From the NCBI RefSeq assembly GCF_001735745.1, contig NZ_CP017260.1:1320001-1352000 (forward strand): a stretch of 32,000 nucleotides of DNA, read 5' to 3'. Shown here one piece after another: positions 8,273-31,723 of this stretch (its first letter is position 1; each line of letters opens with the position of its first letter). This DNA is from Formosa sp. Hel1_33_131. GTDB lineage: Bacteria > Bacteroidota > Bacteroidia > Flavobacteriales > Flavobacteriaceae. The position numbers and the translations under genes were made by a program. The notes beneath the pieces are model-generated. The model was not told the origin of the DNA. It saw only the letters and a list, made by a program, of their open reading frames with translations, and did not search any database.

Positions 8273-10099
8273 TTATAATACTTTAAGCTTATTATTTTCT
8301 TTGTTTATGTCTGCTGTTGCTTTGTTTACATCTACGGTAATGGTATCAATTTCTGAAGGATTCATATCTACAGAAAAACTATATTCTGGATATGCCCAAG
8401 CCCAATCTTTTAACAACACCTCTCCAACCAGAAGTGGTTTTTCACCTCGCATCATCTGCAAAGGGATGTAATAATTTTTTACACTTCCATCCTTCATAAG
8501 AACCTGAACCTCTACTGGCATTGGCATTAACCCAATGCGTTCAAGCGTAATATTGGTTTTACCTTCTAAAGCAACGGCACTTTTCACTCCGTAATCAATC
8601 GTATTTGTCGTCTGTGTCCAATCCGTCAAAAACCATTCCAATTCTAAACCAGACGTCTTTTCGGCACAACGGATAAAATCATTTGGCGTTGGGTGTTTAA
8701 ACGCCCAGTCGTTAAAATATTCTTTTAAGGTCTTTTCAAAATTTTCCTCTCCAATAATATATCGCAATTGCGCCAATACCAAGGCACCTTTACTATAAGT
8801 TGAGACGCTATAAGAAGCGTTATACGCAAACCGATCTGAATGTGTGCTCATGGGTTGTTCTTTGCCACTTTGCACGAGCCTGTAATAGCGATCGTAATTA
8901 CGTTTCATTGGTTCAGCAGTCTCTACGCCAAATATGGTATTTTCAATAAATGTACAAGTGTACTCCGCAAACCCTTCATCTAACCAGGGGTGTTTACTTT
9001 CGTTAGAAGCCATCAAAAACTGAAACCATGTATGTCCAATTTCGTGTGCAGTCACGCCCACCAAACTCTCAAAACTGCGCTCTCCTGTAATCAGGGTACA
9101 CATGCCGTATTCCATACCACCATCGCCCCCCTGAATCACAGAGTATTGCTCATAGGGATATTTTCCAACCGCACTGCTATAGTATTGCATGATTTCACTT
9201 GTTGGGACTTGTAAGTCTCTCCAGCGTTTTTTGTATTTACGCTTTAAGGACTTTTTATATAAAAAATGCAACAGCGGTCCATCGGGAACTTGTAAGGTAT
9301 CGTGAATAAAATTTGGATCAGCGGCCCATGTAAAATCATGAACGTTGGGTGCTACAAAATGCCATGTTAGCACATCTGAATCTTCTTTTGTCTCTTTGGT
9401 TCCATATCCATGTCCAATTTCATTTGGGTTTTGTAAGTAACCTGTTCCGCCAACCGTATAGTCTTTATCAAGGGTTAGCTTTACATCAAAATCACCCCAC
9501 ACGCCATGAAACTCTCTTCCAATATAAGGGTCCGCATGCCAGCCTTCAAAATCATATTCTGCCATTTTTGGATACCATTGTGCCATAGAAAGCGCTACTC
9601 CTTCTTTACTGTTTTTTCCAGAGCGACGAATCACAGGCGGTACCTGTCCTTCAAAAGTCATTTCAAATAGGGCCGACTCTCCCGATTTGATAGGTGTGTT
9701 TAATTGAACTTCCAACACCGTTCCAACCACAGTATACTCTAAAGGGACACTGTTTTGGGTCAAACTAACAACGTTTAGAAATCCAAAATCTTCTTTTTGA
9801 AGCTTACTAATTCGATCTCCGACTCGTGAATCTGCATCTGCAATTGTAATGGAACGGACATCCATTTCACTTCCGGGTTGAAAGGCATTGAAAAATAAAT
9901 GATAAAACACGCGCCCTAAATTATCTGGAGAATTGTTGGTGTAAACTAGTTTTTGAGTCCCTCCGTAATTGAAGGTATTCACATCCATTTTCACGTCCAT
10001 AGTGTAGTCCACTCGTTGTTGCCAGTATTCAAAATTGTTTTGACTGTCCACAGAAGTGATTCCGATTAAAAAAGCAAGCACATAAGAAGTATGTTTCAT
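8273..10099 (-). CDS. M1 family zinc metallopeptidase (aminopeptidase N-like)
   Basis: 608 aa with a signal peptide. It has the HEXXH zinc motif (HEIGHTWF) plus a downstream WLDEGFAEY glutamate ligand. Confidence 0.88.
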   Translation of the reverse strand: MKHTSYVLAFLIGITSVDSQNNFEYWQQRVDYTMDVKMDVNTFNYGGTQKLVYTNNSPDNLGRVFYHLFFNAFQPGSEMDVRSITIADADSRVGDRISKLQKEDFGFLNVVSLTQNSVPLEYTVVGTVLEVQLNTPIKSGESALFEMTFEGQVPPVIRRSGKNSKEGVALSMAQWYPKMAEYDFEGWHADPYIGREFHGVWGDFDVKLTLDKDYTVGGTGYLQNPNEIGHGYGTKETKEDSDVLTWHFVAPNVHDFTWAADPNFIHDTLQVPDGPLLHFLYKKSLKRKYKKRWRDLQVPTSEIMQYYSSAVGKYPYEQYSVIQGGDGGMEYGMCTLITGERSFESLVGVTAHEIGHTWFQFLMASNESKHPWLDEGFAEYTCTFIENTIFGVETAEPMKRNYDRYYRLVQSGKEQPMSTHSDRFAYNASYSVSTYSKGALVLAQLRYIIGEENFEKTLKEYFNDWAFKHPTPNDFIRCAEKTSGLELEWFLTDWTQTTNTIDYGVKSAVALEGKTNITLERIGLMPMPVEVQVLMKDGSVKNYYIPLQMMRGEKPLLVGEVLLKDWAWAYPEYSFSVDMNPSEIDTITVDVNKATADINKENNKLKVL

Positions 10100-19194: not shown

Positions 19195-19202
19195 CAAAGA
19201 TA
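19195..19202 (-). promoter_or_regulatory. Candidate -7 promoter box (TATCTTTG) for gltX
   Basis: The reverse complement of caaagata is TATCTTTG. It lies 18 nt upstream of the gltX ATG (19176). Confidence 0.3.
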
Positions 19203-19269
19203 GAATTGCTGAAGGCATTCCCCAAAGAAATAGGTGGTGTTTTTGATTCGGTTGTTTTAGGGATAATTA

Positions 19270-19707
19270 ATCATAGTCAACCATTTTAATATCGAGTCAT
19301 CTGAGATGAGTCGAAATAGTTGTAGAACTAACTTGATTAAATTCCATTATTTTCCCCCAAGTTCCATGATTATTTCTGTAAAGAGATGTAAAACCATTTC
19401 CATAGCAACGTTTCATTTTAAAGATAGAAACTAAAGCATATTTTTTGTTTTTCCACAATTTTTTTTTGTTCTAAAGCCATTTAATTTTTACAATTATCCT
19501 CACTCAACTTGCCGATTTCCCCATAGCCAGCAACCGGGTTAGTCAACATAGTATTCATGTTTGAGCTATCGCCAACACGAATACTTAGTTATTACCTGTC
19601 TGGCTTTTCTTTCCACAAACAGGCTAGCGTTGGCGAAGACATACTCTTTTACAGTTTTGGCGTTGAGCTGGCTGTAGCGACTGTAAATGTGTATGGCTTT
19701 GCGTTGG
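19270..19707 (-). pseudogene. Degenerate ORF debris, possibly a transposase/mobile-element gene remnant
   Basis: There is no ORF of 60 aa or more. Minus-strand frames give short pieces interrupted by stops and frame changes: QRKAIHIYSRYSQLNAKTVKEYVFANASLFVERKARQVITKY.., ..NPVAGYGEIGKLSEDNCKN*, MKRCYGNGFTSLYRNNHGTWGKIMEFNQV... The last piece loosely resembles the K-R-x-x-G-x-x-R-x-R-G C-terminal motif of DDE transposases. The 19560-19705 stretch is noticeably more GC-rich than its surroundings. Confidence 0.3.
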
Positions 19708-20691
19708 CTATTCTTCCGTTTCTATATTCCACTTAATTTTTTTTAATCTTTCAGCTACTACTTTTAACGTTTTCATTATTTTATTCTCCGACGGAAATTC
19801 GCCAAAAACTAATTCCTTAAAACTGGTTTCATAAGTGTCTTTGACTTGATTCCAAGTATTTTCAGTTTCTGAAAACAGTATTGTGTTTATTGGATGGTTT
19901 GATAACCAACTATTATTGTTTTTAAAACTTATCACATCATCTTTTGCGACCTTTAAAAGCATTACATCAAATTCTTTTGAATTGAAAAAGGATTTAAGTT
20001 CATCGTCTTTTAACATCATATGAATATCGTATGTGTGTCTAATCTTATTGCTCAAATCAGTTATTGGTTGTTCTGTTTGAGAAAAACGAACCAAACTCAT
20101 CAGCTTTTCACATAGCGTTCTTTCAGTTCTTAATACTAAAACATCAAAAGGATTCATTTCGTATTGATTAATTATATCTTGTTGGTTAGCCTTCAACATC
20201 ATTTCATAAATGTAAGACGATATTGTTCCTGTAGTGTATGGCTCAAAATGCCCAAGCCAAGTAGATTCTACAATAATATTGTCTCTTACTTGTCCAAAAT
20301 CTCCATTAAAACTCTTTTCATAACTGTGAGCAGTTTTACGTATCATTCCCATTTTGTGAGTTATTCCTTCAACTTCTATCTCAGGAATTACTTTCGTAAC
20401 GCATTTTGAAATTTTTTTAATTTTAGATTTAAGTTGATTGTTTGTCTCTCCATCTTTTCTTAAAACTACTAAATCAATATCTTCTGAAAATCGGTCAATT
20501 AGCTGATTACATTTAGATAGGGCAGTACCTCCTTTAAAAACAGTTTCTTTTCCAATCTCACTGTTGAAAATAGCGTGTAAAGCAATTGTTACCCAATAAT
20601 CTTTTTCAATATAGATTTCTGGAATTCCCTTTTGTTGAGAAGTCGCAGTTATCGCATCTTGGAATAGTTCTTTATTTTCGTGTAGCTTCAT
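19708..20691 (-). CDS. abiEii: AbiEii/AbiGii-family nucleotidyltransferase toxin (type IV TA / abortive infection)
   Basis: The FKGGTALSKC...RFSEDIDLVV motif fits the DUF1814/AbiEii NTase fold. The ORF track starts at a TTG (20703). The ATG at 20691 (MKLHENKELF) forms an ATGA overlap with the upstream stop and is the more likely start. Confidence 0.8.
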   Translation of the reverse strand: MKLHENKELFQDAITATSQQKGIPEIYIEKDYWVTIALHAIFNSEIGKETVFKGGTALSKCNQLIDRFSEDIDLVVLRKDGETNNQLKSKIKKISKCVTKVIPEIEVEGITHKMGMIRKTAHSYEKSFNGDFGQVRDNIIVESTWLGHFEPYTTGTISSYIYEMMLKANQQDIINQYEMNPFDVLVLRTERTLCEKLMSLVRFSQTEQPITDLSNKIRHTYDIHMMLKDDELKSFFNSKEFDVMLLKVAKDDVISFKNNNSWLSNHPINTILFSETENTWNQVKDTYETSFKELVFGEFPSENKIMKTLKVVAERLKKIKWNIETEE

Positions 20692-21419
20692 ATAATATTC
20701 CAATTGGTTATAGTTGGTAGTATTTTTTTATCAATTCCGTAATTATATTCGGAAAGTGGATTAAGACTCTTTATTAATGTTTTTAATTCAGAGTCAATAA
20801 AAAAGTTTATTTGTTCTAATAAAGCACCTAAAAAAGCCCTCACTCTGGGTGGATAAGATAAAGCATAGTCAATGAGTTGTTTTATCTCTTTTGTGTTCAG
20901 TTTTTTTAGTTGATTCGAAATAATTTTGATTCCTGAATTCTTGTCTAAATCTGGTATTTTTTTAAAATCTTTGAGAGCATCTAAAGTTTCTAGCAGAGAG
21001 AAATTTTTATCTGTAACATCTACATAACTTTTTACTGGATTTCCTTTAATATTTCCAACTGATACTGTTATTCGTTTGTCTCTACTTGCAATTTTTATAT
21101 TTCTTGGTACTTGAGTTGTTAAACCCATTCGGTTGTATAAAGAAACACCTGTTATGTAAGCAATTCTTTTGTTGTTTTGGAATAAATAGGGTTTCAATAA
21201 CTCTTCTTCATTGGGTTTTAACTCTCCAAAAATGGTTTGTTTAGGTTTATAAAAAACTCCTGTAGAAACTCTTTTGATAATTCCTTTTTCAATTAAACGT
21301 TCAATTGCTTTCGCAGCTGCACTATATTCGTTTGATTCAATAGAAAGTTGTTGGTACTTGAAAGTAGTACCTTCTTTTAACGTTTTAATTTTATTTTCTA
21401 TTTTTTGAGCTACTTTCAT
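20688..21419 (-). CDS. abiEi: AbiEi-family antitoxin / transcriptional regulator (DUF6088-like wHTH)
   Basis: The N-terminal winged-helix-like region (YSAAAKAIERLIEKGIIKRVSTGVFYKP) and the gene size fit AbiEi partners of AbiEii. The gene sits directly upstream of the NTase and is translationally coupled to it. The probable start is the ATG at 21419 (MKVAQK); the track's TTG at 21437 lies inside the putative promoter. Confidence 0.7.
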   Translation of the reverse strand: MKVAQKIENKIKTLKEGTTFKYQQLSIESNEYSAAAKAIERLIEKGIIKRVSTGVFYKPKQTIFGELKPNEEELLKPYLFQNNKRIAYITGVSLYNRMGLTTQVPRNIKIASRDKRITVSVGNIKGNPVKSYVDVTDKNFSLLETLDALKDFKKIPDLDKNSGIKIISNQLKKLNTKEIKQLIDYALSYPPRVRAFLGALLEQINFFIDSELKTLIKSLNPLSEYNYGIDKKILPTITNWNII

Positions 21420-21426
21420 TGTGAAA

Positions 21427-21477
21427 CAAAAGTACAATATTTTAGTTATTTATCAAGTAAACGAAGCATAATACTTG
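21427..21477 (-). promoter_or_regulatory. Candidate abiE promoter (-33 TTG / -7 TACTTTTG) with overlapping inverted repeat
   Basis: On the minus strand, TTG (21456-21454) is followed by a 19-nt spacer and then TACTTTTG (21434-21427), ending 7 nt before the ATG at 21419. An inverted repeat, caagta (21454-21459) / tacttg (21472-21477), overlaps the -33 element. Confidence 0.4.
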
Positions 21478-21481
21478 ACAT

Positions 21482-22006
21482 TTAGTTCGATTGCTCTTGG
21501 TTCGGTTCAGATTTTATTAATTCTCGTGCAAAGTCGATGAATAATTTATATGCTTTGGTAAAAGAATATTTATCGTCTGGATGTTTAATCGCAATGTTCC
21601 TTTTCACCATAGTAGAACCAACTAACCTTTTAATACTATCAGCATCATTTAATTGTTTATTTGATTTTACAATATCAGACCAAGTACTGTTTTTTATGTA
21701 TTCTATTATTTCTTCAATATGAAAGTCCGAAAATCCCAATTCATCCATAAAATTCTTTCCGTCTTTGTCTAGTTCGTAGCAAAATATTGAGAAAAAGATA
21801 CTTATGTCACGAGAAGTGTTTTCGTTTGTTTCTTCGGAAATTAGGTAATAAAATTCTTGTGTGTTTTTTAATTCGAAACCAAAAGACTTCTCGAAAAACT
21901 CAATATAAAAATCTTGATATTCCTTTATAATATCGAAGTAAGAATCATCAATTGTTATAAATCTTCCATCCATTAAAGATGTAACTTTATGTTTATTTGG
22001 ATACAT
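21482..22006 (-). CDS. MksE/JetB-like small winged-helix protein (middle subunit of SMC-like/ABC defence complexes); orphan
   Basis: 174 aa. The pattern L.DGRFI..DD..F..I.EYQDFY..FF...GFEL.....FYYL, followed by ..Y.F......FIDF, recalls MksE/DUF4194 (JetB) and ABC-3C 'middle component' proteins. This assignment is from memory of family patterns, not a search. Confidence 0.45.
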   Translation of the reverse strand: MYPNKHKVTSLMDGRFITIDDSYFDIIKEYQDFYIEFFEKSFGFELKNTQEFYYLISEETNENTSRDISIFFSIFCYELDKDGKNFMDELGFSDFHIEEIIEYIKNSTWSDIVKSNKQLNDADSIKRLVGSTMVKRNIAIKHPDDKYSFTKAYKLFIDFARELIKSEPNQEQSN

Positions 22007-22313
22007 TTTCTTTTTTAGTGATTTTTAGTTTTGGCATTATCAACTCTCCTTGTTCTGTTTTAAAAGAAATATTTCGGTTCTCTTTGTCTTGCAGAACTTC
22101 ATAATCTACTTCAAAGATTAAACTTGTAACCATAAAATAGTTGTCAAAATCGAATTTCTTGTTTTCGTTTTCTAATGATGTTTTGCACCAAGTAAAAAAG
22201 TCATCAACAGGAAGTTTTAAGTTTAGTTGAGATTTGTATTCACTTTTATTGAAAATCCATTGCTCTACAATATCAGTTTCTTCTTCAATAAATACATCTT
22301 CTTCATTATTTCT
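21993..22313 (-). pseudogene. 5'-truncated ORF remnant overlapping the MksE-like start (possible kleisin/MksF-JetA-like or ABC-3C component C-terminus)
   Basis: I translated it by hand. There are 106 open codons (RNNEEDVFIEEETDIVEQWIFNKSEYKSQLNLKLPVDDFFTWCKTSLENENKKFDFDNYFMVTSLIFEVDYEVLQDKENRNISFKTEQGELIMPKLKITKKENVSK*). They begin directly after an in-frame TAA and only 8 nt below the stop of the T9SS gene. No ATG, GTG or TTG gives more than about 46 aa. The 3' end overlaps the downstream ATG by 14 nt, in the style of operon coupling. Confidence 0.4.
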
Positions 22314-22320
22314 TTACTTT

Positions 22321-23052
22321 TCACTTCTTTATAAATTTTTTCATTTCAATCCGTCCTAGCTTATCTTCAAACAAAATAAAATACAGCCCCTTTGACAGTT
22401 TTTCTACATTAAAAGATTCCGTTTTTAAATTTGAACGGTTTAATGATAAAACCCGTTTCCCATTTATATTAAAAATAGCGATACTAAAGTTGCTTAATCC
22501 TGCTATTTCGGAAATAAACAATTCATCTAATACAGGGTTCGGAGACACAGAAAACCTGTTTACTGAATACTCATGTGTGGATAATACCACACTCCCATAA
22601 ACCGTTTTATCTCCAGAGGAATTGCTAACGGTTAAAGTCTTGCTACCATCACTATTACTTAAAATAGAATACTCAAAAGGGTTGTTTACATTGTTGAAGT
22701 AGTAGTTGAAATACAGGGATTCATAATTAGCATTTGATGTTTGATAACACCCCCCTCCTAGGGTTTGAGCTAAACTAGTAAACATAAAATTTTGATTCAC
22801 ATCATCGTAATCAACTTCACCACCTAAGCTTTCGCATACCCAACTTGAAAAATAGTTATAGTTGTTCGTGTTTAAATTGTTCGTGTTTAAAGTTAAAGAA
22901 ATAGACATTACTTCACTATTAATTGGAGGTACATTATTTTGGGTATTAATGTTTAGGTTGTGTAAATACCAAGTGTTTTGAAACAATTGTGAATCTTGCG
23001 CTAAGCAACTTAGCGACATTCCGAGGAAAAGAATTAGGATGGTATTTTTCAT
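22321..23052 (-). CDS. Secreted protein with T9SS (Por) C-terminal sorting domain
   Basis: 243 aa with a signal peptide (MKNTILILFLGMSLSCLAQ) and an Asn-rich N-terminal domain with two Cys. The C-terminal ~75 aa (SPNPVLDELFI...IAIFNINGKRVLS...LSKGLYFILFED) match the T9SS type A sorting domain pattern. Confidence 0.75.
   Translation of the reverse strand: MKNTILILFLGMSLSCLAQDSQLFQNTWYLHNLNINTQNNVPPINSEVMSISLTLNTNNLNTNNYNYFSSWVCESLGGEVDYDDVNQNFMFTSLAQTLGGGCYQTSNANYESLYFNYYFNNVNNPFEYSILSNSDGSKTLTVSNSSGDKTVYGSVVLSTHEYSVNRFSVSPNPVLDELFISEIAGLSNFSIAIFNINGKRVLSLNRSNLKTESFNVEKLSKGLYFILFEDKLGRIEMKKFIKK
22862..22891. repeat. Perfect 15-bp tandem duplication (2 copies) inside the T9SS cargo gene
   Basis: ttgttcgtgtttaaa occurs at 22862-22876 and again at 22877-22891. 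The duplication is in frame and encodes LNTNN-LNTNN. Confidence 0.9.
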
Positions 23053-23168
23053 TTTAAATATATTTAAAGTGATACGGATATATCATCTTAATGATGTGTT
23101 TATTTCTTCTCTGCTATTAACCACATTGCTCGCGCTCCCACTTTTATATCAATGGGCTCCTCTCAGTA

Positions 23169-23286
23169 AATAATATCTAAAACTTCGGTTAAGTTGCTTC
23201 TTGAAGATTTAGACTTGGGGTCGAAATCAAGGATAAACTTACTAAAAAAATTGAAAGCTTCCAAAAAATTAAAAATTTTAACAGTT
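23169..23286. repeat. Copy A of a ~118-bp direct repeat
   Basis: aataatatctaaaacttcggttaagttgcttcttgaagatttagacttggggtcgaaatcaaggataaactta...ttttaacagtt aligns by eye to 24625-24741. The first ~80 bp match well (roughly 85-90%, with a few indels). The last ~35 bp are looser. Confidence 0.8.
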
Positions 23287-23461
23287 GGAGTGAGATTGCT
23301 TAAAAATAGAATGTAGCAACAGGCGATATTGTCTATTTCAATAGACATCTAAAAAATAAAGAACAAAATAAGCTTAATTGTGAAATTATGCCTAGAAAAT
23401 TATTGCACAAAATTTATCAAGAAAAGAGTTGTTTTTAGCTCAGTTCTTTGCTGGTATTATT

Positions 23462-24469
23462 TTATAGACCAATTCTTTTATTTATCTTTTTAAAAATTTT
23501 TTCAACTTTTTTTGGAGCATTAAATCTATACCCAAAATAAATTTTAATAAAAAACAGATCATTCGTAATATTGGTCATGCTATCTTCATTGTACCAAGTG
23601 GTTTCAAATTTAAGATTGGCTCCATAAATATACTTTCTAGAGCTATAGCCAATTTGTAACCCTCCGTCAAAAGATAAAGGCCAGTACACATTATTGTCGA
23701 TAAAATCTGTTTCGTTTTCTCCACTCTTTGAAAACCGAATACCAAAAGAAGGTGATGCATATAATGAAACAAACCAATTTTTGTGAATTACTGCAGTATA
23801 ATAGTATTCAGGAGCAATACCAATATCAAAACTATTTTCAAAGAATTTAGTACCCCCTGTAGTCCCAGATAAATGAGTATACCCATAACGCAAAGTCGGA
23901 ATAAAACTCCCAGCACTTTTTCGTTGCCACTCTGTGTTGTACGCTACATTCCTTAATGAAAAGTTTGGATTTAAAACGTAAGAGGTAGAGCCGCCCCAAA
24001 AAATAGTTTTAAGATCGGGAAATTGAATATACAAATCTTGTCCATCAATCCAGTTTGAAATAAAATCATTTGTGTTTTCAACATAAAAGCTTTGTACTTT
24101 TTTATATTTAATTCCTTGAGTCCAGTTTCCAAGAAAAAAACGAAAACTATAGTCTTTATAAGTTGATTTACCTTTTAAATTATTGTCATTGTTTCCTGGG
24201 AGAAATTCTGGAGAAAACCCAATGCTCGCACCAATAAATTCATAATCTAGTGATAATACCAGTCTAAATTGATTATTTGCAGAAAGGCGAAAGTTTGAAT
24301 CATTTTCTGATTGAATAGAATATGAGTCGGTTTGCGTATCGATATTTGCTTTTATAATAATTTTATCTGTGAAGGACAGTATAGACGTAGAATCTGTATT
24401 CCCTTTATTTTGACTTACAGCATTTGAAATGTTCAAAAGAAGGATTATTAAAAAGCTTATTTTATTCAT
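23462..24469 (-). CDS. Putative outer-membrane beta-barrel protein (DUF4421-like)
   Basis: 335 aa with a signal peptide. It has alternating amphipathic strands rich in Y/G/S/N and a C-proximal barrel-end motif (IKIYFGYRF). The size and N-terminal pattern recall the Bacteroidota DUF4421 family. Confidence 0.5.
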   Translation of the reverse strand: MNKISFLIILLLNISNAVSQNKGNTDSTSILSFTDKIIIKANIDTQTDSYSIQSENDSNFRLSANNQFRLVLSLDYEFIGASIGFSPEFLPGNNDNNLKGKSTYKDYSFRFFLGNWTQGIKYKKVQSFYVENTNDFISNWIDGQDLYIQFPDLKTIFWGGSTSYVLNPNFSLRNVAYNTEWQRKSAGSFIPTLRYGYTHLSGTTGGTKFFENSFDIGIAPEYYYTAVIHKNWFVSLYASPSFGIRFSKSGENETDFIDNNVYWPLSFDGGLQIGYSSRKYIYGANLKFETTWYNEDSMTNITNDLFFIKIYFGYRFNAPKKVEKIFKKINKRIGL

Positions 24470-24624
24470 TTGATATTCAGTTTAAAATTAATGTCAACGT
24501 GTTATATGGAGATTAAACCTCCTGTTTATAAGTTCTTATTTCTGGATAATATGTTATTATTATCCAAAACATCAGTTAGCACACCTGAATCTTTACACCT
24601 GTGCACACTGATAATTCACACTAA

Positions 24625-24864: not shown

Positions 24865-27800
24865 TTGGACGGTTTTCACAACATAGAACAAAAACTAGAG
24901 CATTTCATAAGACGTTATTATTTAAGCGCCTTATTGAAAGGTCTTCTGTTGTTTTTCGCTATTGGATTGCTCTATGTACTGCTACTGTTGAGTATTGAGC
25001 ATTTTTTCTGGCTGGGTTCTTCCGGTCGCTTGTTTTTATTTTACTGCGTTTTAGGTTTTGAAGCCCTTCTTTTTTATGGGTTTATTTTCATCCCCTTAGC
25101 AAAATATTTTAAGATCCAAAAAGGCATTGATCTTGAAACCGCCTCCAAGATTGTCGGCGATCATTTCCCAGAAGTGAAAGACAAGCTTTTAAATGTCCTT
25201 CAACTCAACCAACAATCCGAACACACCGAGTTTCTATTAGCAAGCATCGAACAAAAATCGAACAACCTAAGCTTAGTCCCTTTTAAAAGTGCGGTCAGTT
25301 TTAAGGAAAACCTTAAATATATTAGGTACGCTTTACTCCCCATTCTTATTGTATTTCTGTTTATTCTTTTTGGGAAACAAGCCGTGTTCACAGACAGCCT
25401 CAAACGCGTTGTCAATTATAATACCGCCTATGCACCTCCCGCTCCTTTTGAGTTTTTTATAATGAATACCAATCTGGAGGCTATCGAAAACACCTCTTTT
25501 ACGTTGGTTGCTAAAACCGTTGGAAAGTTCGTTCCAGAATCCGTTCAGATTGTTTATAACGATGAGGTTTATATATTAAATCAAACCGAATTGGGCGTTT
25601 TTGAATATGAGTTTTCACATCCCAATTCCCCTATTGATTTTAAATTAGTCACTACTGAGGTGGTTTCCAAGCCCTACCGTTTAGAGGTGTTGCCCATTCC
25701 TGTTTTGCTCAGTTTTGACATGTATTTAGACTATCCAACATATACAGGAAAATCAGATGAAAAAATTGCCAACAACGGAAATGCCACCATCCCAGAAGGC
25801 ACAAAGTTGAAATGGGAGTTGCGTACCAAGTCCACTGATACCGTTTCCTTTTCTTATAAAAATACAATCGCTTTTTTTGACCATAACGATCAAAAATTTC
25901 AATTCAGTAAACAAGTTTTTGAATCTTTGAATTATACAATTCAAACAAGCAACTCCAAGCTTAAAAACTACGAAAATCTTGCCTTTTCATTACAAACCAT
26001 CACAGACCAGTCGCCAGCTATTAAGGTGGAAATGAAACAAGATTCTACCTACCAAGCTTCTCTTTATTTTTATGGTCAAATCTCCGACGATTATGGAATT
26101 AAAGATTTGAAACTCTATTATTATCCAGTGGCAGATGCGTCTAACATCAACGAACTAAGCTTGCCGTCCAACACCACTACCTTTCAGGAGTTCACACATG
26201 CGTTTCCTTCTGGCTTAGAATTGATGGATGACACTCCCTACGCGCTTTACTTTGAGGTTTCCGACAACGACCCCTTCCACAAAACCAAAACCACTAGAAG
26301 CCGTGTTTTTAATTACAATTCTAAAAGTGAAAACACCATTCAAGAAATTCAACTTGAGGAACAAAGCGAATTGACCACTGCTTTTCAAAAGGCATTGAAC
26401 ACCCTGTCCGAACAAGACAAAAATTTGAATGAAATATCTCAAAATCAAAAAGAAAAGGAACAGCTTAATTTTAGCGATCAACAAAAATTAAAATCTTTTT
26501 TAGAGCGACAACAGGCCCAAGACAAGATGTTGAAGGAGTTCAATAAAAAAATGCAGGACAATCTAAATCAGTTTGAAAAATCAAAAGAGGAAGATCCGTT
26601 TAAAGAACAACTTGAAAAACGATTGGAAGCACAGCAAGAAGCGCTCGAAAAGGATGAGAAATTATTAGAAGAGCTAAAGAAAATCACCGATAAAATTAAC
26701 AAAGAAGAACTCGCCGATAAACTGGAAAAAATGGCGAAGAAGAACAAAAACAAACAACTCAGTTTAGAGCAGTTGTTAGAGCTTACAAAACGCTATTATG
26801 TAACCAAAAAATCCGAACAGCTTTTAGATAATTTGAATGAATTATCTAAAGAGCAGATGCAGTTGGCGGAGGAATCCGAAGAACAAAACACCAAAGAAGC
26901 CCAAGAAAAATTAAATGAAGAATTCAAGGAGCTTACAAAAGAACTAGACGATTTAAGAAAAGATAACGACGCTCTTGCAAAACCTCTTGAATTGCCAGAC
27001 GACCCAAATCTTGAAGAATCGATTGAAAAAGATCAGGAAAACGCAAGTGATGAGTTAGGCGAAAAAGAACAATCTCCCGACCCTCAGGAGCAAAAAGAGA
27101 AACTAAACAAGGCTCAAAAAAGTCAAAAGAAGGCTGCTCAGAAAATGCAGCAAATGAGTCAAAAAATGGCACAGCAAATGAGCAGCGGTGGCGGTCAGCA
27201 AATGAGTGAAGACATTGACTTGCTGCGTCAAATTCTGGATAATTTGCTTCTCTTTTCTTTTGATCAAGAATTGCTCATGAAGCGTTTTCAGGAATCCACC
27301 ACAAACACCACCGGGCACGCCAAGCGTCTTGTGAGGCAAAGTAATTTGCGCGAACACTTTGAGCATGTCGATGACAGTTTGTTTTCGCTATCCTTACGCC
27401 AGCCCATGATTTCGGAATCTATCAACAAAGAAATAACAGAAGTCTTTTTTAATATTGATAAAAGTCTCGAACTCCTCTCCGAAAACAGTTTTAGAGAAGC
27501 CATTGGTGCGCAACAATTTGCCATTACAGCCACCAACAAATTAGCGGATATGCTCAGCAACACACTGGACAATATGGAAATGCAGATGCAGATGTCTCCT
27601 GGACAAGGCGAGGGCGAAATGCAACTGCCAGACATTATCATGAGTCAAGAGGCACTCAGTAAGAAAATGGAAAAAGAGCTTGGTAAAAAGGGTGAAAAAT
27701 CTGAGGGCGAACAAGAAGGTTCTGAAAAAGGAGATGGGGAGCCAAAGAAGGAAGGTGAGGGTTCCAAAAAAGGAGAGCAAGGCCAAGAGGGCCAAGAAGG

Positions 27801-28299
27801 TGGAGAAGGAAAAGAAGGCCAAAACGGCAAACAAGGTCAGCAAGGACAACAGGGAAATCAAGGTGGTGAAGGCGAAGGCTCAGAAGGGGACAATGGCGAA
27901 TTGTTCGAGATCTTTAAAAAACAACAAGAGTTGCGGAATGCTTTACAAGATTTATTAGACAAAAATGGCATTGGAGACAACGGTCAAAAGCTGCTTGATT
28001 CTATGGAAAAAATCGAACAAAACCTTATTAATCAAGGTCTTACAGAAAAATCTTTACAAGCAATGCAAAACCTTAAGCATCAGCTCTTAAAACTAGAAAA
28101 GGCCGTACAACAGCAGGGCGAAGACACCAAGCGCGTTTCCAACACCAGCAAAGCGGAGCGGTCACAACCGCCAATTCCTAGCGCGGAAACGATCAAACAA
28201 TATTTTAATACGACTGAGATATTGAACCGACAAAGCCTACCTTTACGTCAAGAATTTAAGCAAAAAGTTCAAGAATATTTTAAGATAAAAAATGATTAG
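24865..28299 (+). CDS. Large membrane-anchored coiled-coil protein (DUF4175-like)
   Basis: 1144 aa with a TTG start. It has two N-terminal TM helices and a beta-rich middle region. About 300 aa of E/K/Q-rich predicted coiled coil follow, then a G/E/Q/K low-complexity tract. The architecture and the position upstream of ybeY fit the conserved Bacteroidota DUF4175-type proteins. The family name is from memory. Confidence 0.6.
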   Translation: MDGFHNIEQKLEHFIRRYYLSALLKGLLLFFAIGLLYVLLLLSIEHFFWLGSSGRLFLFYCVLGFEALLFYGFIFIPLAKYFKIQKGIDLETASKIVGDHFPEVKDKLLNVLQLNQQSEHTEFLLASIEQKSNNLSLVPFKSAVSFKENLKYIRYALLPILIVFLFILFGKQAVFTDSLKRVVNYNTAYAPPAPFEFFIMNTNLEAIENTSFTLVAKTVGKFVPESVQIVYNDEVYILNQTELGVFEYEFSHPNSPIDFKLVTTEVVSKPYRLEVLPIPVLLSFDMYLDYPTYTGKSDEKIANNGNATIPEGTKLKWELRTKSTDTVSFSYKNTIAFFDHNDQKFQFSKQVFESLNYTIQTSNSKLKNYENLAFSLQTITDQSPAIKVEMKQDSTYQASLYFYGQISDDYGIKDLKLYYYPVADASNINELSLPSNTTTFQEFTHAFPSGLELMDDTPYALYFEVSDNDPFHKTKTTRSRVFNYNSKSENTIQEIQLEEQSELTTAFQKALNTLSEQDKNLNEISQNQKEKEQLNFSDQQKLKSFLERQQAQDKMLKEFNKKMQDNLNQFEKSKEEDPFKEQLEKRLEAQQEALEKDEKLLEELKKITDKINKEELADKLEKMAKKNKNKQLSLEQLLELTKRYYVTKKSEQLLDNLNELSKEQMQLAEESEEQNTKEAQEKLNEEFKELTKELDDLRKDNDALAKPLELPDDPNLEESIEKDQENASDELGEKEQSPDPQEQKEKLNKAQKSQKKAAQKMQQMSQKMAQQMSSGGGQQMSEDIDLLRQILDNLLLFSFDQELLMKRFQESTTNTTGHAKRLVRQSNLREHFEHVDDSLFSLSLRQPMISESINKEITEVFFNIDKSLELLSENSFREAIGAQQFAITATNKLADMLSNTLDNMEMQMQMSPGQGEGEMQLPDIIMSQEALSKKMEKELGKKGEKSEGEQEGSEKGDGEPKKEGEGSKKGEQGQEGQEGGEGKEGQNGKQGQQGQQGNQGGEGEGSEGDNGELFEIFKKQQELRNALQDLLDKNGIGDNGQKLLDSMEKIEQNLINQGLTEKSLQAMQNLKHQLLKLEKAVQQQGEDTKRVSNTSKAERSQPPIPSAETIKQYFNTTEILNRQSLPLRQEFKQKVQEYFKIKND
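27681..27900 (+). repeat. Low-complexity G/E/Q/K-coding tract inside the DUF4175-like gene
   Basis: It encodes GKKGEKSEGEQEGSEKGDGEPKKEGEGSKKGEQGQEGQEGGEGKEGQNGKQGQQGQQGNQGGEGEGSEGDNG. At the DNA level it is made of imperfect gaagg/caagg repeats. Confidence 0.8.
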
Positions 28300-28705
28300 T
28301 TTTAGCTCAGAAGTCCCCTTCGAAATTTCCAATGCTGACACTACAGCCTCATGGCTCGGTGCCATTATTTCCCAAGAAGATTATAACGAGGGCGAGGTTT
28401 CCATTGTGTTTTGTGATGATGAATTTCTACACAAACTTAATGTTGAATTCTTAGATCATGACACCCTAACCGATGTGATTAGTTTCGATTACTCTATGGG
28501 GAAAGAAATTCATGGAGAAATATTTATTTCTATTGAACGCGTAAAAGAAAACGCCAACGAATTCAATCAAAGTTTCGATACGGAACTAGCGAGAGTCATG
28601 GCGCATGGCATTCTGCACTACTGTGGTTATAAAGACAAATCTGAATCAGAAGCCGCCGCTATGCGATCTAAAGAAGAGTTCTATCTTCAACAACGTGCCG
28701 ATTAA
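28292..28705 (+). CDS. ybeY: rRNA maturation endoribonuclease YbeY
   Basis: 137 aa with the metal-binding motif HGILHYCGYKD, the Bacteroidota variant of HGxLHLxGYDH. The start overlaps the upstream stop by 8 nt. Confidence 0.88.
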   Translation: MISFSSEVPFEISNADTTASWLGAIISQEDYNEGEVSIVFCDDEFLHKLNVEFLDHDTLTDVISFDYSMGKEIHGEIFISIERVKENANEFNQSFDTELARVMAHGILHYCGYKDKSESEAAAMRSKEEFYLQQRAD

Positions 28706-28718
28706 TTTTCTAAAGCCT

Positions 28719-28726
28719 TATATTTG
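28719..28726 (+). promoter_or_regulatory. Candidate -7 promoter box (TATATTTG) for mnmG
   Basis: It is an exact TAnnTTTG match, 46 nt upstream of the mnmG ATG. It overlaps the 16-bp palindrome ATTTGCAGCTGCAAAT (28722-28737). Confidence 0.4.
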
Positions 28727-28741
28727 CAGCTGCAAATGATT

Positions 28742-28757
28742 TGTTCCACGTGGAACA
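28742..28757. promoter_or_regulatory. parS: parS site 1 (ParB/Spo0J-binding centromere-like site)
   Basis: TGTTCCACGTGGAACA is a perfect 16-bp palindrome. It fits the conserved parS consensus tGTTNCACGTGNAACa (the GTTCCACGTGGAAC variant). It lies in the ybeY-mnmG spacer. Confidence 0.75.
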
Positions 28758-28772
28758 TTAAAAATGTAACCA

Positions 28773-30644
28773 ATGTTTGATAAAATTTACGATGTAATTG
28801 TAGTTGGTGGAGGACACGCCGGAAGTGAGGCAGCAGCAGCAGCTGCCAACATGGGGAGCAGTACTTTGCTAGTTACAATGAACCTTCAAAACATAGCGCA
28901 AATGTCATGCAACCCAGCAATGGGCGGTATTGCCAAAGGGCAAATCGTTCGTGAGATTGACGCCCTTGGAGGCTACAGTGGAATCGTAAGTGACACCTCT
29001 GCGATCCAATTCAAAATGCTCAACAAGTCTAAAGGCCCTGCCATGTGGAGTCCACGTGTGCAGAGTGACCGAATGCGGTTTGCAGAAGATTGGAGACTGC
29101 TATTGGAGCAAACCAAAAACCTAGATTTTTATCAAGAAATGGTCACAGGACTTGTGATTAAAGGTGATGAAGTCACAGGCGTAAAAACGTCCTTAGGATT
29201 AGAGATTCGAGCCAAGACGGTTGTGCTTACCAACGGTACGTTTTTAAATGGATTAATACACATTGGCAATAAGAATTTTGGTGGTGGTCGTGCTGGAGAG
29301 AAAGCAGCCACAGGCATCACAGAGCAACTCGTTGATTTAGGGTTTGAATCCGGTCGAATGAAAACAGGAACTCCGCCTAGAGTGGATGGGCGTTCTTTAG
29401 ATTTTTCTAAAATGATCGAACAACCGGGCGATGCAGTACCAGAAAAATTCTCCTATTCAGATATCACCAAGCCGCTCACAACACAGCGTCCTTGCCACAT
29501 GTCTTATACAAGTTTAGAAGTTCATAATTTATTAAGAGAAGGCTTTGACCGATCGCCCATGTTTAATGGTCGCATCCAAAGTTTAGGGCCGCGTTATTGT
29601 CCCTCTATTGAAGATAAAATAAATCGTTTTGCGGACAAGGACCGTCACCAGATTTTTGTAGAACCTGAGGGTTGGAATACCGTTGAGTATTATATCAATG
29701 GCTTTTCAACCTCTTTGCCCGAAGACGTTCAGTTTAAGGCGTTGAGTGCCGTGAAAGGATTTGAAAACGTTAAGTTTTTCAGACCGGGATATGCGATTGA
29801 ATACGACTACTTCCCTCCTACGCAACTGACACACTCTTTAGAAACCAAGCTCGTTAAAGGCTTGTATTTTGCAGGACAAATTAATGGAACTACAGGCTAT
29901 GAAGAAGCAGCCTCTCAAGGGTTAATGGCAGGAATTAATGCCAGTTTAAAAGTACAAGAAAAAGAGCCATTTATACTCAAACGGAACGAAGCTTATATAG
30001 GAGTTTTGATTGATGATTTAATCACCAAAGGTACTGACGAGCCTTATCGAATGTTTACGTCACGTGCGGAATACCGCACGCTTTTAAGGCAAGATAACGC
30101 CGACATTCGTTTGACACCCAAAGGGTACGAATTGGGGATTGCGAGCGAAAAGCGCCTCAAGCGGATGGAAGAAAAGCTGTCCAAAGCCGAAGCTTTTGTT
30201 GGGTTCTTTAGAACACAAAGTGTGAAGCCTGAGGAAGCAAATCCAGTTTTAGAAAGTAAAGATTCCCAACCGATTCGCCAGTCTGATAAAATGTTTAAGA
30301 TATTTTCCAGGCCTAATATAGGCATTGAAGATGTTCGTAAATTTGAGGCAGTCGAAGCCTATATACAATCCAATGATTTGGATAATGAAGTCATTGAACA
30401 AGCCGAAATACAGGTGAAGTATTCTGGGTATATAGCCAAAGAAAAACTGAATGCTGACAAACTCACACGTTTAGAATATGTCAAAATCCCTAGTGGTTAT
30501 GACTACTCTCAAATCAAATCCATGAGTTATGAAGCACGTGAAAAACTAAAGAAAATACAACCCACAACGGTTGCTCAAGCGTCACGCATCAGCGGGGTGT
30601 CCCCTAATGATATTTCTGTGCTACTGGTGTATATGGGGCGTTAA
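28773..30644 (+). CDS. mnmG: tRNA uridine 5-carboxymethylaminomethyl modification enzyme MnmG (GidA)
   Basis: 623 aa with the FAD-binding motif DVIVVGGGHAGSEAA. GidA-family conservation runs through the whole length (CNPAMGGIAKG, GPRYCPSIEDK, GQINGTTGYEEAA). Confidence 0.95.
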   Translation: MFDKIYDVIVVGGGHAGSEAAAAAANMGSSTLLVTMNLQNIAQMSCNPAMGGIAKGQIVREIDALGGYSGIVSDTSAIQFKMLNKSKGPAMWSPRVQSDRMRFAEDWRLLLEQTKNLDFYQEMVTGLVIKGDEVTGVKTSLGLEIRAKTVVLTNGTFLNGLIHIGNKNFGGGRAGEKAATGITEQLVDLGFESGRMKTGTPPRVDGRSLDFSKMIEQPGDAVPEKFSYSDITKPLTTQRPCHMSYTSLEVHNLLREGFDRSPMFNGRIQSLGPRYCPSIEDKINRFADKDRHQIFVEPEGWNTVEYYINGFSTSLPEDVQFKALSAVKGFENVKFFRPGYAIEYDYFPPTQLTHSLETKLVKGLYFAGQINGTTGYEEAASQGLMAGINASLKVQEKEPFILKRNEAYIGVLIDDLITKGTDEPYRMFTSRAEYRTLLRQDNADIRLTPKGYELGIASEKRLKRMEEKLSKAEAFVGFFRTQSVKPEEANPVLESKDSQPIRQSDKMFKIFSRPNIGIEDVRKFEAVEAYIQSNDLDNEVIEQAEIQVKYSGYIAKEKLNADKLTRLEYVKIPSGYDYSQIKSMSYEAREKLKKIQPTTVAQASRISGVSPNDISVLLVYMGR

Positions 30645-30654
30645 TTAATCTAAT

Positions 30655-30670
30655 TGTTCCACGTGGAACG
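30655..30670. promoter_or_regulatory. parS: parS site 2
   Basis: TGTTCCACGTGGAACG is palindromic at 15 of 16 positions. It lies 11 nt after the mnmG stop and 5 nt before the methyltransferase ATG. Confidence 0.7.
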
Positions 30671-30674
30671 TGAT

Positions 30675-31529
30675 ATGGAAACACACAAGAGCCATCTAAA
30701 ACTTAAAGACCATTCCTTAAGCGGAGACTCCTTTGAACTCCTTTATGACCCGTCTAGAGAGTTGCTTTATACGCACCCCAAACCATCAGAAGAGAAATTG
30801 TCAAGCTACTACCCTGACACGAATTATATCTCCCATACCAACCAGCGGAAATCTTTATTCGATCTTTTATACCATCTAGTTCGATCTGTTTCTGTTATAA
30901 GAAAATTCAGACTTTTAAAATCCTTTCAGCCAAAACAAGGCGCACTATTGGATGTAGGTGCCGGCACTGGGTTTTTCTTAAGAGCTGCTAAAAAAAGAGG
31001 TTGGACTGTTACCGGAATTGAACCCAACCCCTCGGCGCGAAACCTTGCAAATTCAAAAGCGCCCAATACTGTTTTTGACACCGAAACCTTGGGCACGCTC
31101 CCCGAAAGGTCGTTTGATGTGATTACCCTTTGGCATGTATTAGAACACCTTCCAAATTTAGAGGACGACCTAAAAACATTCCAGAAACTTCTAAAACCAA
31201 ACGGTCGCATTGTGGTGGCAGTGCCAAATTTTAAAAGCTTTGACGCAGCTTACTTTAAAGACTTTTGGGCGGCTTATGATGTTCCAAGGCACCTATGGCA
31301 TTTTTCCCAACAGTCGATCTCAAAAGTGTTTTCTAAGGTTCAAATGAAATTAGAATCGACTCACCCTTTAATGATGGACGCGTATTACGTTAGTTTGCTT
31401 TCCAATAAACTTAAAACAGGGTCTCATCGAATTTTAAATAGTTTGTGGGTTGGATTTCTTTCAAATTTAAAGGCAGCAAAGTCCGGAGAGTACTCCTCGC
31501 TTATTTATATCCTCAAAAACAAGAATTAG
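30675..31529 (+). CDS. Class I SAM-dependent methyltransferase
   Basis: It has the SAM-binding motif LLDVGAGTGFF and a downstream DVITLWHVLEHL. I place the start at the ATG at 30675 (METHKSHL). The track's TTG start at 30654 reads through parS site 2. Confidence 0.8.
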   Translation: METHKSHLKLKDHSLSGDSFELLYDPSRELLYTHPKPSEEKLSSYYPDTNYISHTNQRKSLFDLLYHLVRSVSVIRKFRLLKSFQPKQGALLDVGAGTGFFLRAAKKRGWTVTGIEPNPSARNLANSKAPNTVFDTETLGTLPERSFDVITLWHVLEHLPNLEDDLKTFQKLLKPNGRIVVAVPNFKSFDAAYFKDFWAAYDVPRHLWHFSQQSISKVFSKVQMKLESTHPLMMDAYYVSLLSNKLKTGSHRILNSLWVGFLSNLKAAKSGEYSSLIYILKNKN

Positions 31530-31551
31530 CGTTTTAAGACCTTTTAGAGGT

Positions 31552-31567
31552 TGTTTCACGTGAAACA
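31552..31567. promoter_or_regulatory. parS: parS site 3 (exact consensus)
   Basis: TGTTTCACGTGAAACA is a perfect palindrome identical to the canonical parS consensus. It lies 23 nt after the methyltransferase stop. Confidence 0.8.
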
Positions 31568-31723
31568 TCTAATGTGCCATTCGGCATTTATATTTCTTAA
31601 TTTAAGAGGTGTTTAAAGAGGCTTAATAAAATAGTTTTTTACAATTACACTTAGTTAGATTGATAGTTTTTACTTATAATGCAACTCCGACACTTATTTT
31701 TACAATATTGCAATTACTTTTTT

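Follow-up and report, generated by a model that had tools for sequence, protein, structure and literature searches.

It is in Firmicutes, Proteobacteria, Actinobacteria and Deinococcus-Thermus that the biology of the ParABS chromosome partitioning systems has been elucidated. The DNA sites of three of these systems, those of Bacillus subtilis (Spo0J/parS), Caulobacter crescentus (ParB/parS) and Pseudomonas aeruginosa (parS1-4), are the same 16-bp palindrome as the one that we describe here from Formosa sp. Hel1_33_131. The stretch analysed, hereafter the window, comprises 32,000 nt (NZ_CP017260.1, positions 1,320,001 to 1,352,000 of the forward strand) and carries three 16-mers around the gene mnmG (gidA) which are very probably chromosomal parS centromere sites of this marine Flavobacteriaceae bacterium. 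The published parS consensus is TGTTNCACGTGAAACA and most chromosomal parS sites lie within the origin-proximal 20% of the chromosome (PMC7022226). The parS clusters of Bacteroides caecimuris and Muribaculum intestinale (PMC10197239) belong to the same phylum and resemble the sites described here in their consensus-based detection and their clustering; they differ in coming from Bacteroidales and not Flavobacteriia, and the genes flanking them were not reported. Bacteroidetes go unmentioned in the text of a ParB review. The initial annotation of this stretch, which had proposed the three sites, regarded parS as little studied in Flavobacteriia, and our literature searches, which found no experimental parS work in this class, agree with that view.

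The three 16-mers, none of which is assigned a strand, are all intergenic and occupy spacers of 67, 30 and 226 nt. Site 1, TGTTCCACGTGGAACA (28742..28757), is a perfect palindrome in the spacer between ybeY and mnmG, with the ATG of mnmG 15 nt further on. Site 2, TGTTCCACGTGGAACG (30655..30670), lies 10 nt past the mnmG stop codon in the spacer between mnmG and a methyltransferase gene. Site 3, TGTTTCACGTGAAACA (31552..31567), again a perfect palindrome, is found 22 nt past the methyltransferase stop codon and is a lineage-specific additional copy. In comparison with TGTTNCACGTGNAACA the sites have 0, 1 and 0 mismatches respectively; all three conform to the 16-bp pattern tGTTNCACGTGAAACa expected of chromosomal parS and are inverted repeats of two 8-bp half-sites, from which site 2 deviates at base 16 only. 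A scan of both strands of the window with TGTTNCACGTGNAACA, allowing up to 2 mismatches, returned these three matches and no others, where 0.11 (standard deviation 0.35) were expected by chance, and none of 100 dinucleotide-preserving shuffles gave three. We extended the window by ~10 kb on each side using contigs of the same species (99.5-99.8% identity), and in the resulting 51.4-kb composite the three sites were again the sole matches with up to 2 mismatches, the next-best sequences having 3. The sites are therefore clustered within 2.8 kb and of low copy, with no other match in 51 kb. On re-reading the sequence at 28742-57, 30655-70 and 31552-67 the coordinates given in the initial annotation proved exact, and its description of two of the sites as perfect palindromes, of all three as fitting the parS consensus and of the 32 kb as holding no further full match was likewise correct. 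The window contains six CACGTG hexamers, all between 28.7 and 31.6 kb (28747-31562), three being the parS cores and three lying within mnmG; the first 28.7 kb contains none, where a rough estimate from base composition gives ~3.

Conservation of the sites was examined in 80 mnmG loci from 80 GTDB species genomes (1.56 Mb in total), most of them Flavobacteriaceae and the remainder from Weeksellaceae, Crocinitomicaceae, Parvicellaceae, Cytophagales and a few other groups, counting as parS any match with at most 1 mismatch within 400 bp of mnmG. Upstream of mnmG a parS was present in 70 of the 77 loci with enough flank, at a median distance of 28.5 nt from the start codon, and downstream in 61 of 79, at a median of 12 nt past the stop codon; 57 loci had parS on both sides. 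The same pattern was seen at the mnmG flanks of six additional genomes. Conservation at the orthologous positions is strong and extends through Flavobacteriales and into some Cytophagales. The initial annotation had noted that its proposal would fail if the motif were dispersed in the manner of a repetitive extragenic palindromic (REP) element. No such dispersal was seen, with only 18 sites beyond the mnmG flanks in the whole 1.56 Mb, about half of these within ~1 kb of mnmG. When the spacers were aligned, upstream (A1) and downstream (A2), the 16-mer was near-invariant and its surroundings hardly aligned at all, and a conserved 16-mer within diverged spacers amounts to the phylogenetic footprint of a functional DNA element. 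Because the same arrangement recurs across relatives, the locus is very probably a real but ordinary chromosomal centromere.

The number of sites is more variable than the bracket around mnmG, with between 1 and 4 upstream copies in relatives. Sites 1 and 2 are kept in sister strains (L089-L094). Site 3 is present in the same-species contigs (L081-L083), and sister strains whose MnmG is 97% identical lack it and have 6 differences in the orthologous 16 nt; a Kordia locus (L053) has a third site that is placed similarly. The absence of site 3 from the sister strains indicates that parS copy number turns over while the two-site bracket persists. Around site 3, ~80 nt are strongly diverged between flanks that are near-identical (window 31500-31630 against L089 12730-12860), which suggests that a patch of sequence may have been replaced, rather than a site gained or lost by point mutation.

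Several variants were noted among the relatives. In a Kordia metagenome-assembled genome (MAG), Tenacibaculum and two Flavobacteriaceae MAGs, parS variants beside mnmG, in 2-4 copies, have the CACGTG core changed to CATGTG or CACATG (L010 9934, 9971; L011 4301, 4356; L036 9936, 9973; L047 12038-12884; L043 11902), sometimes accompanied by the form AGTTCCACGTGGAACT. The repetition of an identical core change points to a core variant that is tolerated or has co-evolved, or to gene conversion. In seven loci (L008, L009, L031, L033, L038, L060 and L061, at ~9960-9995) the upstream parS appears to overlap the 3' end of ybeY (...ATG TTC CAC GTG GAA CAA TAG, encoding ...MFHVEQ*), and the MFHVE frame at the end of ybeY in these taxa is the same frame as that of a false N-terminal extension at site 2 of the window, described below. 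In addition, a sequence with one mismatch, TCTTCCACGTGAAACA, occurs ~4.5-5.5 kb downstream of mnmG in five loci (L007 16998, L008 17422, L009 17306, L016 17363 and L050 16334) and could be either an additional weak parS or a coincidence of coding sequence.

Flavobacterial ParB proteins were retrieved with a probe composed as a flavobacterial ParB consensus, whose sole use was to fetch real proteins. In this way more than 100 database proteins (E ~1e-126 to 1e-130) carrying PF02195 and PF17762 were obtained, many of which, in Gelidibacter, Psychroserpens, Winogradskyella, Dokdonia, Algibacter, Flavivirga, Kordia and others, are named as ParB/RepB/Spo0J family partition protein. A representative from Flavivirga eckloniae (P0064) matched solved ParB structures (E = 2e-53 for 7BNK; also 1VZ0, 4UMK, 6SDK and 6T1F) and has both the GERRxRA cytidine triphosphate (CTP)-binding box and the ENxQRxDL motif intact. 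In Caulobacter ParB the parS-contacting residues Q162, G170, K171, S172, N178 and R204 are common to the related protein Noc, and Jalal et al. found that R173 and G201, which are invariant in ParBs, dictate specificity for parS over the Noc binding site (NBS) (PMC7383237). Eight flavobacterial ParBs were placed in one alignment with a sequence of Caulobacter ParB whose numbering is offset by 10 and in which the nine named residues were spaced and identified correctly. Q162, G170, K171, R173, N178, G201 and R204 were invariant in all eight flavobacterial proteins. As the specificity residues R173 and G201 are kept, the Flavobacteriaceae can be taken, on this alignment, to possess a ParB of the parS-recognising type.

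The genes encoding these proteins lie elsewhere. In three lineages they form the arrangement parA-parB-DUF5683-dapB-lepB, and within 10 kb of these parAB genes no parS was found when one mismatch was allowed (two for L087 and L088). Conversely, the 10 kb on either side of mnmG held no parA or parB in any of about 90 genomes searched by tblastn with real flavobacterial queries. The parS sites and parAB are unlinked in the flavobacterial group, a separation that is mechanistically harmless because ParB acts in trans. Two further features of the parAB loci were observed, namely a second gene of the ParA type, with 58% identity, that immediately precedes parA-parB in Flavivirga eckloniae (L087 8035-9994) and, in another lineage (L095-L104 3249-4889), a parAB operon within ~5 kb of pyrG, which encodes CTP synthase, and yidC.

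A number of results weigh against parS sites at this position, or against their lying close to the origin. Real flavobacterial ParA and ParB found no parA or parB by tblastn in the window or the 51-kb composite, so that the parB homologue presupposed by the initial annotation is present in the family, with its more than 100 ParBs, and absent from the reachable 51 kb of the source genome. The flavobacterial ParBs depart from Caulobacter ParB at S172 (K or N), T179 (Y) and A184 (K), and a lysine at 184 is a Noc-like 'permissive' residue (PMC7383237). Published ParB-binding data were sought in the literature for any member of the Flavobacteriia and none were found. A promoter-like -7 box is found shortly upstream of site 1, making a regulatory role possible. 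With regard to the origin, tblastn with B. subtilis DnaA found no dnaA in the window, in the composite or within 10 kb of any mnmG locus, and the B. subtilis Spo0J and Soj queries gave no hit there either. The DnaA-box TTATCCACA occurred 18 times at up to 1 mismatch against 9.3 expected, a mild enrichment with no cluster. In 38 of the 57 full-length loci GC skew was positive to either side of mnmG, which means that mnmG usually has the orientation of the leading strand and that there is usually no switch within 10 kb.

The remaining evidence on the origin is difficult to read in either direction. Cumulative GC skew in the window has its minimum at ~25-26 kb, which is where gene orientation switches, and in the composite it has a local maximum near position 0; in both, skew follows gene orientation. 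In five closed genomes mnmG was found at 9.6%, 11.8% and 29.9% of the record (forward) and at 35% and 37% (reverse), the record starts being unverified. Since the orientations of mnmG are mixed the record starts are not uniformly the origin, and these positions are uninformative. In Bacteroides caecimuris, clusters of consensus parS coincide with the origin domain seen by Hi-C, and dnaA is not always an origin marker (PMC10197239). From such comparisons we infer that the sites may be proximal to oriC. Loading of SMC (structural maintenance of chromosomes) complexes at the sites is purely conjectural, and is especially uncertain for this phylum because no recognisable condensin homologue was found in the two Bacteroidota genomes of the same study (PMC10197239).

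If the three 16-mers are parS sites, ParB dimers, encoded elsewhere with parA, would recognise each palindrome through their helix-turn-helix domains, bind CTP, close into clamps and slide outward from the sites. The expected outcome would be a single partition complex of several kb centred on the ybeY, mnmG and methyltransferase genes, which ParA would use to segregate sister chromosomes. Sites 1 and 2 constitute an ancient conserved bracket around mnmG and site 3 is a recent additional copy. Binding, spreading and segregation at these sites are predicted by analogy with model organisms, and this account of the mechanism is the most likely one.

Other explanations of the palindromes have to be considered. 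That the matches arose by chance, or as a by-product of composition or coding constraints, might be suspected from the three further CACGTG hexamers inside mnmG and from the confinement of all six in the window to 28.7-31.6 kb. However, no shuffle reproduced three matches, the sites are all intergenic and their position is conserved in ~90% of related genomes, leaving this explanation with a vanishingly small likelihood; we regard it as refuted by the shuffles together with the conservation among the 80 genomes. The 16-mers could instead act as RNA or DNA hairpins, whether terminators, attenuators, mRNA-stabilising stem-loops or REP-like palindromes, as each can form a stem of 5-6 bp with a 4-nt loop, folding of the spacers is somewhat better than that of shuffled sequences (z = -1.75 to -2.9) and the sites are located at gene boundaries. 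Such stems are weak, however, and lack a U-tract, and the sole terminator-like element is a separate one, a weak hairpin with a T-rich tail just 3' of site 3 (31574..31587, + strand; consensus scan and RNA fold). Scans of the window against Rfam and for tRNAs gave no match, and the motif is not dispersed. The variation among the 80 loci is also difficult to reconcile with a hairpin. The commonest form, TGTTCCACGTGAAACA (45 sites, followed by TGTTCCACGTGGAACA with 42 and TGTTTCACGTGAAACA with 25), is a hetero-palindrome that mixes the GTTCCAC and GTTTCAC half-sites and as RNA would place a C-A mismatch in the stem. The variation tracks half-site identity, and the independence with which the two half-sites vary fits a dimeric protein reading each of them and not RNA pairing; the sequence itself, beyond its ability to pair, is kept across orders. 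A role as hairpins is accordingly very improbable, and an intrinsic terminator or REP-like palindrome was rejected given the weak stems, the absence of a U-tract at the sites, the lack of dispersal and the broken pairing of the commonest variant.

A regulatory role deserves somewhat more weight. The palindromes may serve mainly as operators for a ybeY-mnmG-methyltransferase operon, either with ParB as a local repressor or roadblock or through an unrelated regulator that recognises CACGTG palindromes. TAnnTTTG is the consensus of the Bacteroidetes -7 promoter element, and a match to it read from the sequence, TATATTTG (28719..28726, + strand), ends 15 nt before site 1, which in turn lies 15 nt before the mnmG ATG; if this element is used as a promoter, site 1 would sit in the 5' leader of mnmG. 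Across relatives TAnnTTTG preceded the first parS by 15-38 nt in 18 of 74 loci, in comparison with 2.8% of random 60-nt windows, and the sites bracket one particular gene throughout an order. In other bacteria ParB is known to affect expression in the neighbourhood of parS; the topic is also discussed in PMC7022226. Against this, the promoter-like box is missing in three quarters of loci, and the end of ybeY and the upstream site overlap in several taxa. An unrelated regulator would not need full 16-bp identity with a pan-bacterial ParB site, and extra or tandem copies, up to four upstream, suit a loading zone better than an operator. We therefore consider it unlikely that the sites are chiefly operators, although an operator effect would be compatible with centromere function as a possible secondary effect.

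The genes around the sites are those of a chromosomal region, with the housekeeping genes rnr, rnpA, lepA, gltX, ybeY and mnmG in the window. A block of four genes, all on the + strand, is syntenic across related taxa. It opens with a DUF4175-like large membrane protein (24865..28299; PF13779) and continues with the rRNA maturation RNase gene ybeY (28292..28705; TIGR00043, 110 bits), which is the upstream neighbour of mnmG in nearly all loci, mnmG itself (28773..30644; TIGR00136, 840 bits with the cut-off at 525), which sites 1 and 2 bracket, and a class I S-adenosylmethionine-dependent methyltransferase (30675..31529; 284 aa from the ATG at 30675). The last of these matched the Pfam families Methyltransf_23/11/12/25, and against UbiG-like and further class I methyltransferases it gave matches below threshold only; an RsmG/GidB match was sought for it and none was found. 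These family matches bear out the gene calls made earlier for ybeY, mnmG and the methyltransferase. The earlier suspicion of a spurious extension was also well founded, since the mechanically called open reading frame (ORF) begins at a TTG at 30654 and overlaps site 2 (MFHVERD...), and an exact-sequence look-up found the 284-aa form from ATG 30675, the true start, recorded on three public contigs. The MnmG protein is at most 87% identical to that of any GTDB species representative, the nearest being Hwangdonia, Algibacter and Winogradskyella, and 96-100% identical to many metagenome proteins from ENA, JGI and Tara, which shows that the organism belongs to an abundant marine clade.

Two features near the sites were noted in passing. 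Directly 5' of site 1 and overlapping TATATTTG is a 14-bp perfect palindrome, TTTGCAGCTGCAAA (28723-28736), which would fold as a small RNA hairpin. About 4 kb upstream of the parS cluster, positions 19200-24500 form a strain-variable island of low GC content (29-31%) that looks like a small defence or accessory island. Its genes, all on the - strand, encode an AbiEii toxin (19708-20703), a DUF6088 ORF possibly of the AbiEi-antitoxin type (20688-21437), an MksE-like ORF (21482-22006; PF21980, 1.4e-19), a protein with a type IX secretion system (T9SS) sorting tail (22321-23052) and a DUF4421 protein (23462-24469). In the sister strains, the interval from gltX to the DUF4175 gene contains nothing but short hypothetical ORFs.

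Canonical parS flanks mnmG on both sides in most of the 80 genomes sampled from Flavobacteriales and related groups, and this gives a fixed landmark that is easy to recognise. The parS-mnmG-parS arrangement is usable as a marker of the chromosomal centromere in MAGs and draft genomes, and it provides defined targets for ParB chromatin immunoprecipitation sequencing (ChIP-seq), electrophoretic mobility shift assays (EMSA) and fluorescent tagging in tractable flavobacteria. It is also a natural example of parS unlinked from parAB. Current understanding of how ParABS works is unchanged by mnmG-flanking sites, and the sites themselves are canonical parS of a known kind; how widely and how precisely the bracket is kept, and the fact that parAB lies apart from it, may be new. 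A description of such a bracket was sought in literature on flavobacteria and Bacteroidota and none was found, an earlier tabulation (Livny et al. 2007) being possible.

A bolder interpretation is that selection maintains the arrangement as a centromere module in Flavobacteriales and in Bacteroidota close to them, and that its link to parAB, and perhaps that to dnaA/oriC, has been lost. ParB would then load within a transcribed housekeeping operon, site 1 being in the 5' leader of mnmG, and assembly of the complex and expression of the tRNA-modification operon would influence each other; alternatively, dnaA and the centromere would be separated by tens of percent of the chromosome. The conservation of the bracket and its uncoupling from parAB are observed in the genomes analysed; the interpretation as a whole appears rather doubtful to us.

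In relation to the known systems, the two perfect palindromes of the window correspond to forms already described, TGTTCCACGTGGAACA to the P. aeruginosa form of parS and TGTTTCACGTGAAACA to the Caulobacter form. The NBS of Firmicutes (ATTTCCCGGGAAAT) are likewise 16-bp palindromes bound by a CTPase of the ParB family. Their sequence differs from the window sites at positions 1 and 6, which determine specificity, flavobacterial ParBs have R173 and G201 in place of the Q and R of Noc, and Noc is restricted to Firmicutes (PMC7383237); a reading of the window sites as NBS was rejected. As in the model ParABS systems, several clustered intergenic copies adjoin mnmG/gidA in the window and the flavobacterial lineage has a ParB with the GERRxRA CTP-binding box and R173/G201. 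The initial annotation, whose interpretation is borne out in part, went further and saw here the classic arrangement of a ParB nucleation and SMC-loading region next to gidA and beside the origin. That comparison does not hold, as gidA-gidB-parA-parB is absent: the methyltransferase gave no RsmG/GidB match and tblastn gave no parA or parB. The locus departs from the model systems in that no gidB adjoins the window mnmG and dnaA is not nearby, and in that flavobacterial parAB lies more than 10 kb from the sites in all genomes checked, in an operon of its own without nearby parS. It differs from them too in the conservation of a two-site bracket around one gene over a very wide taxonomic range.

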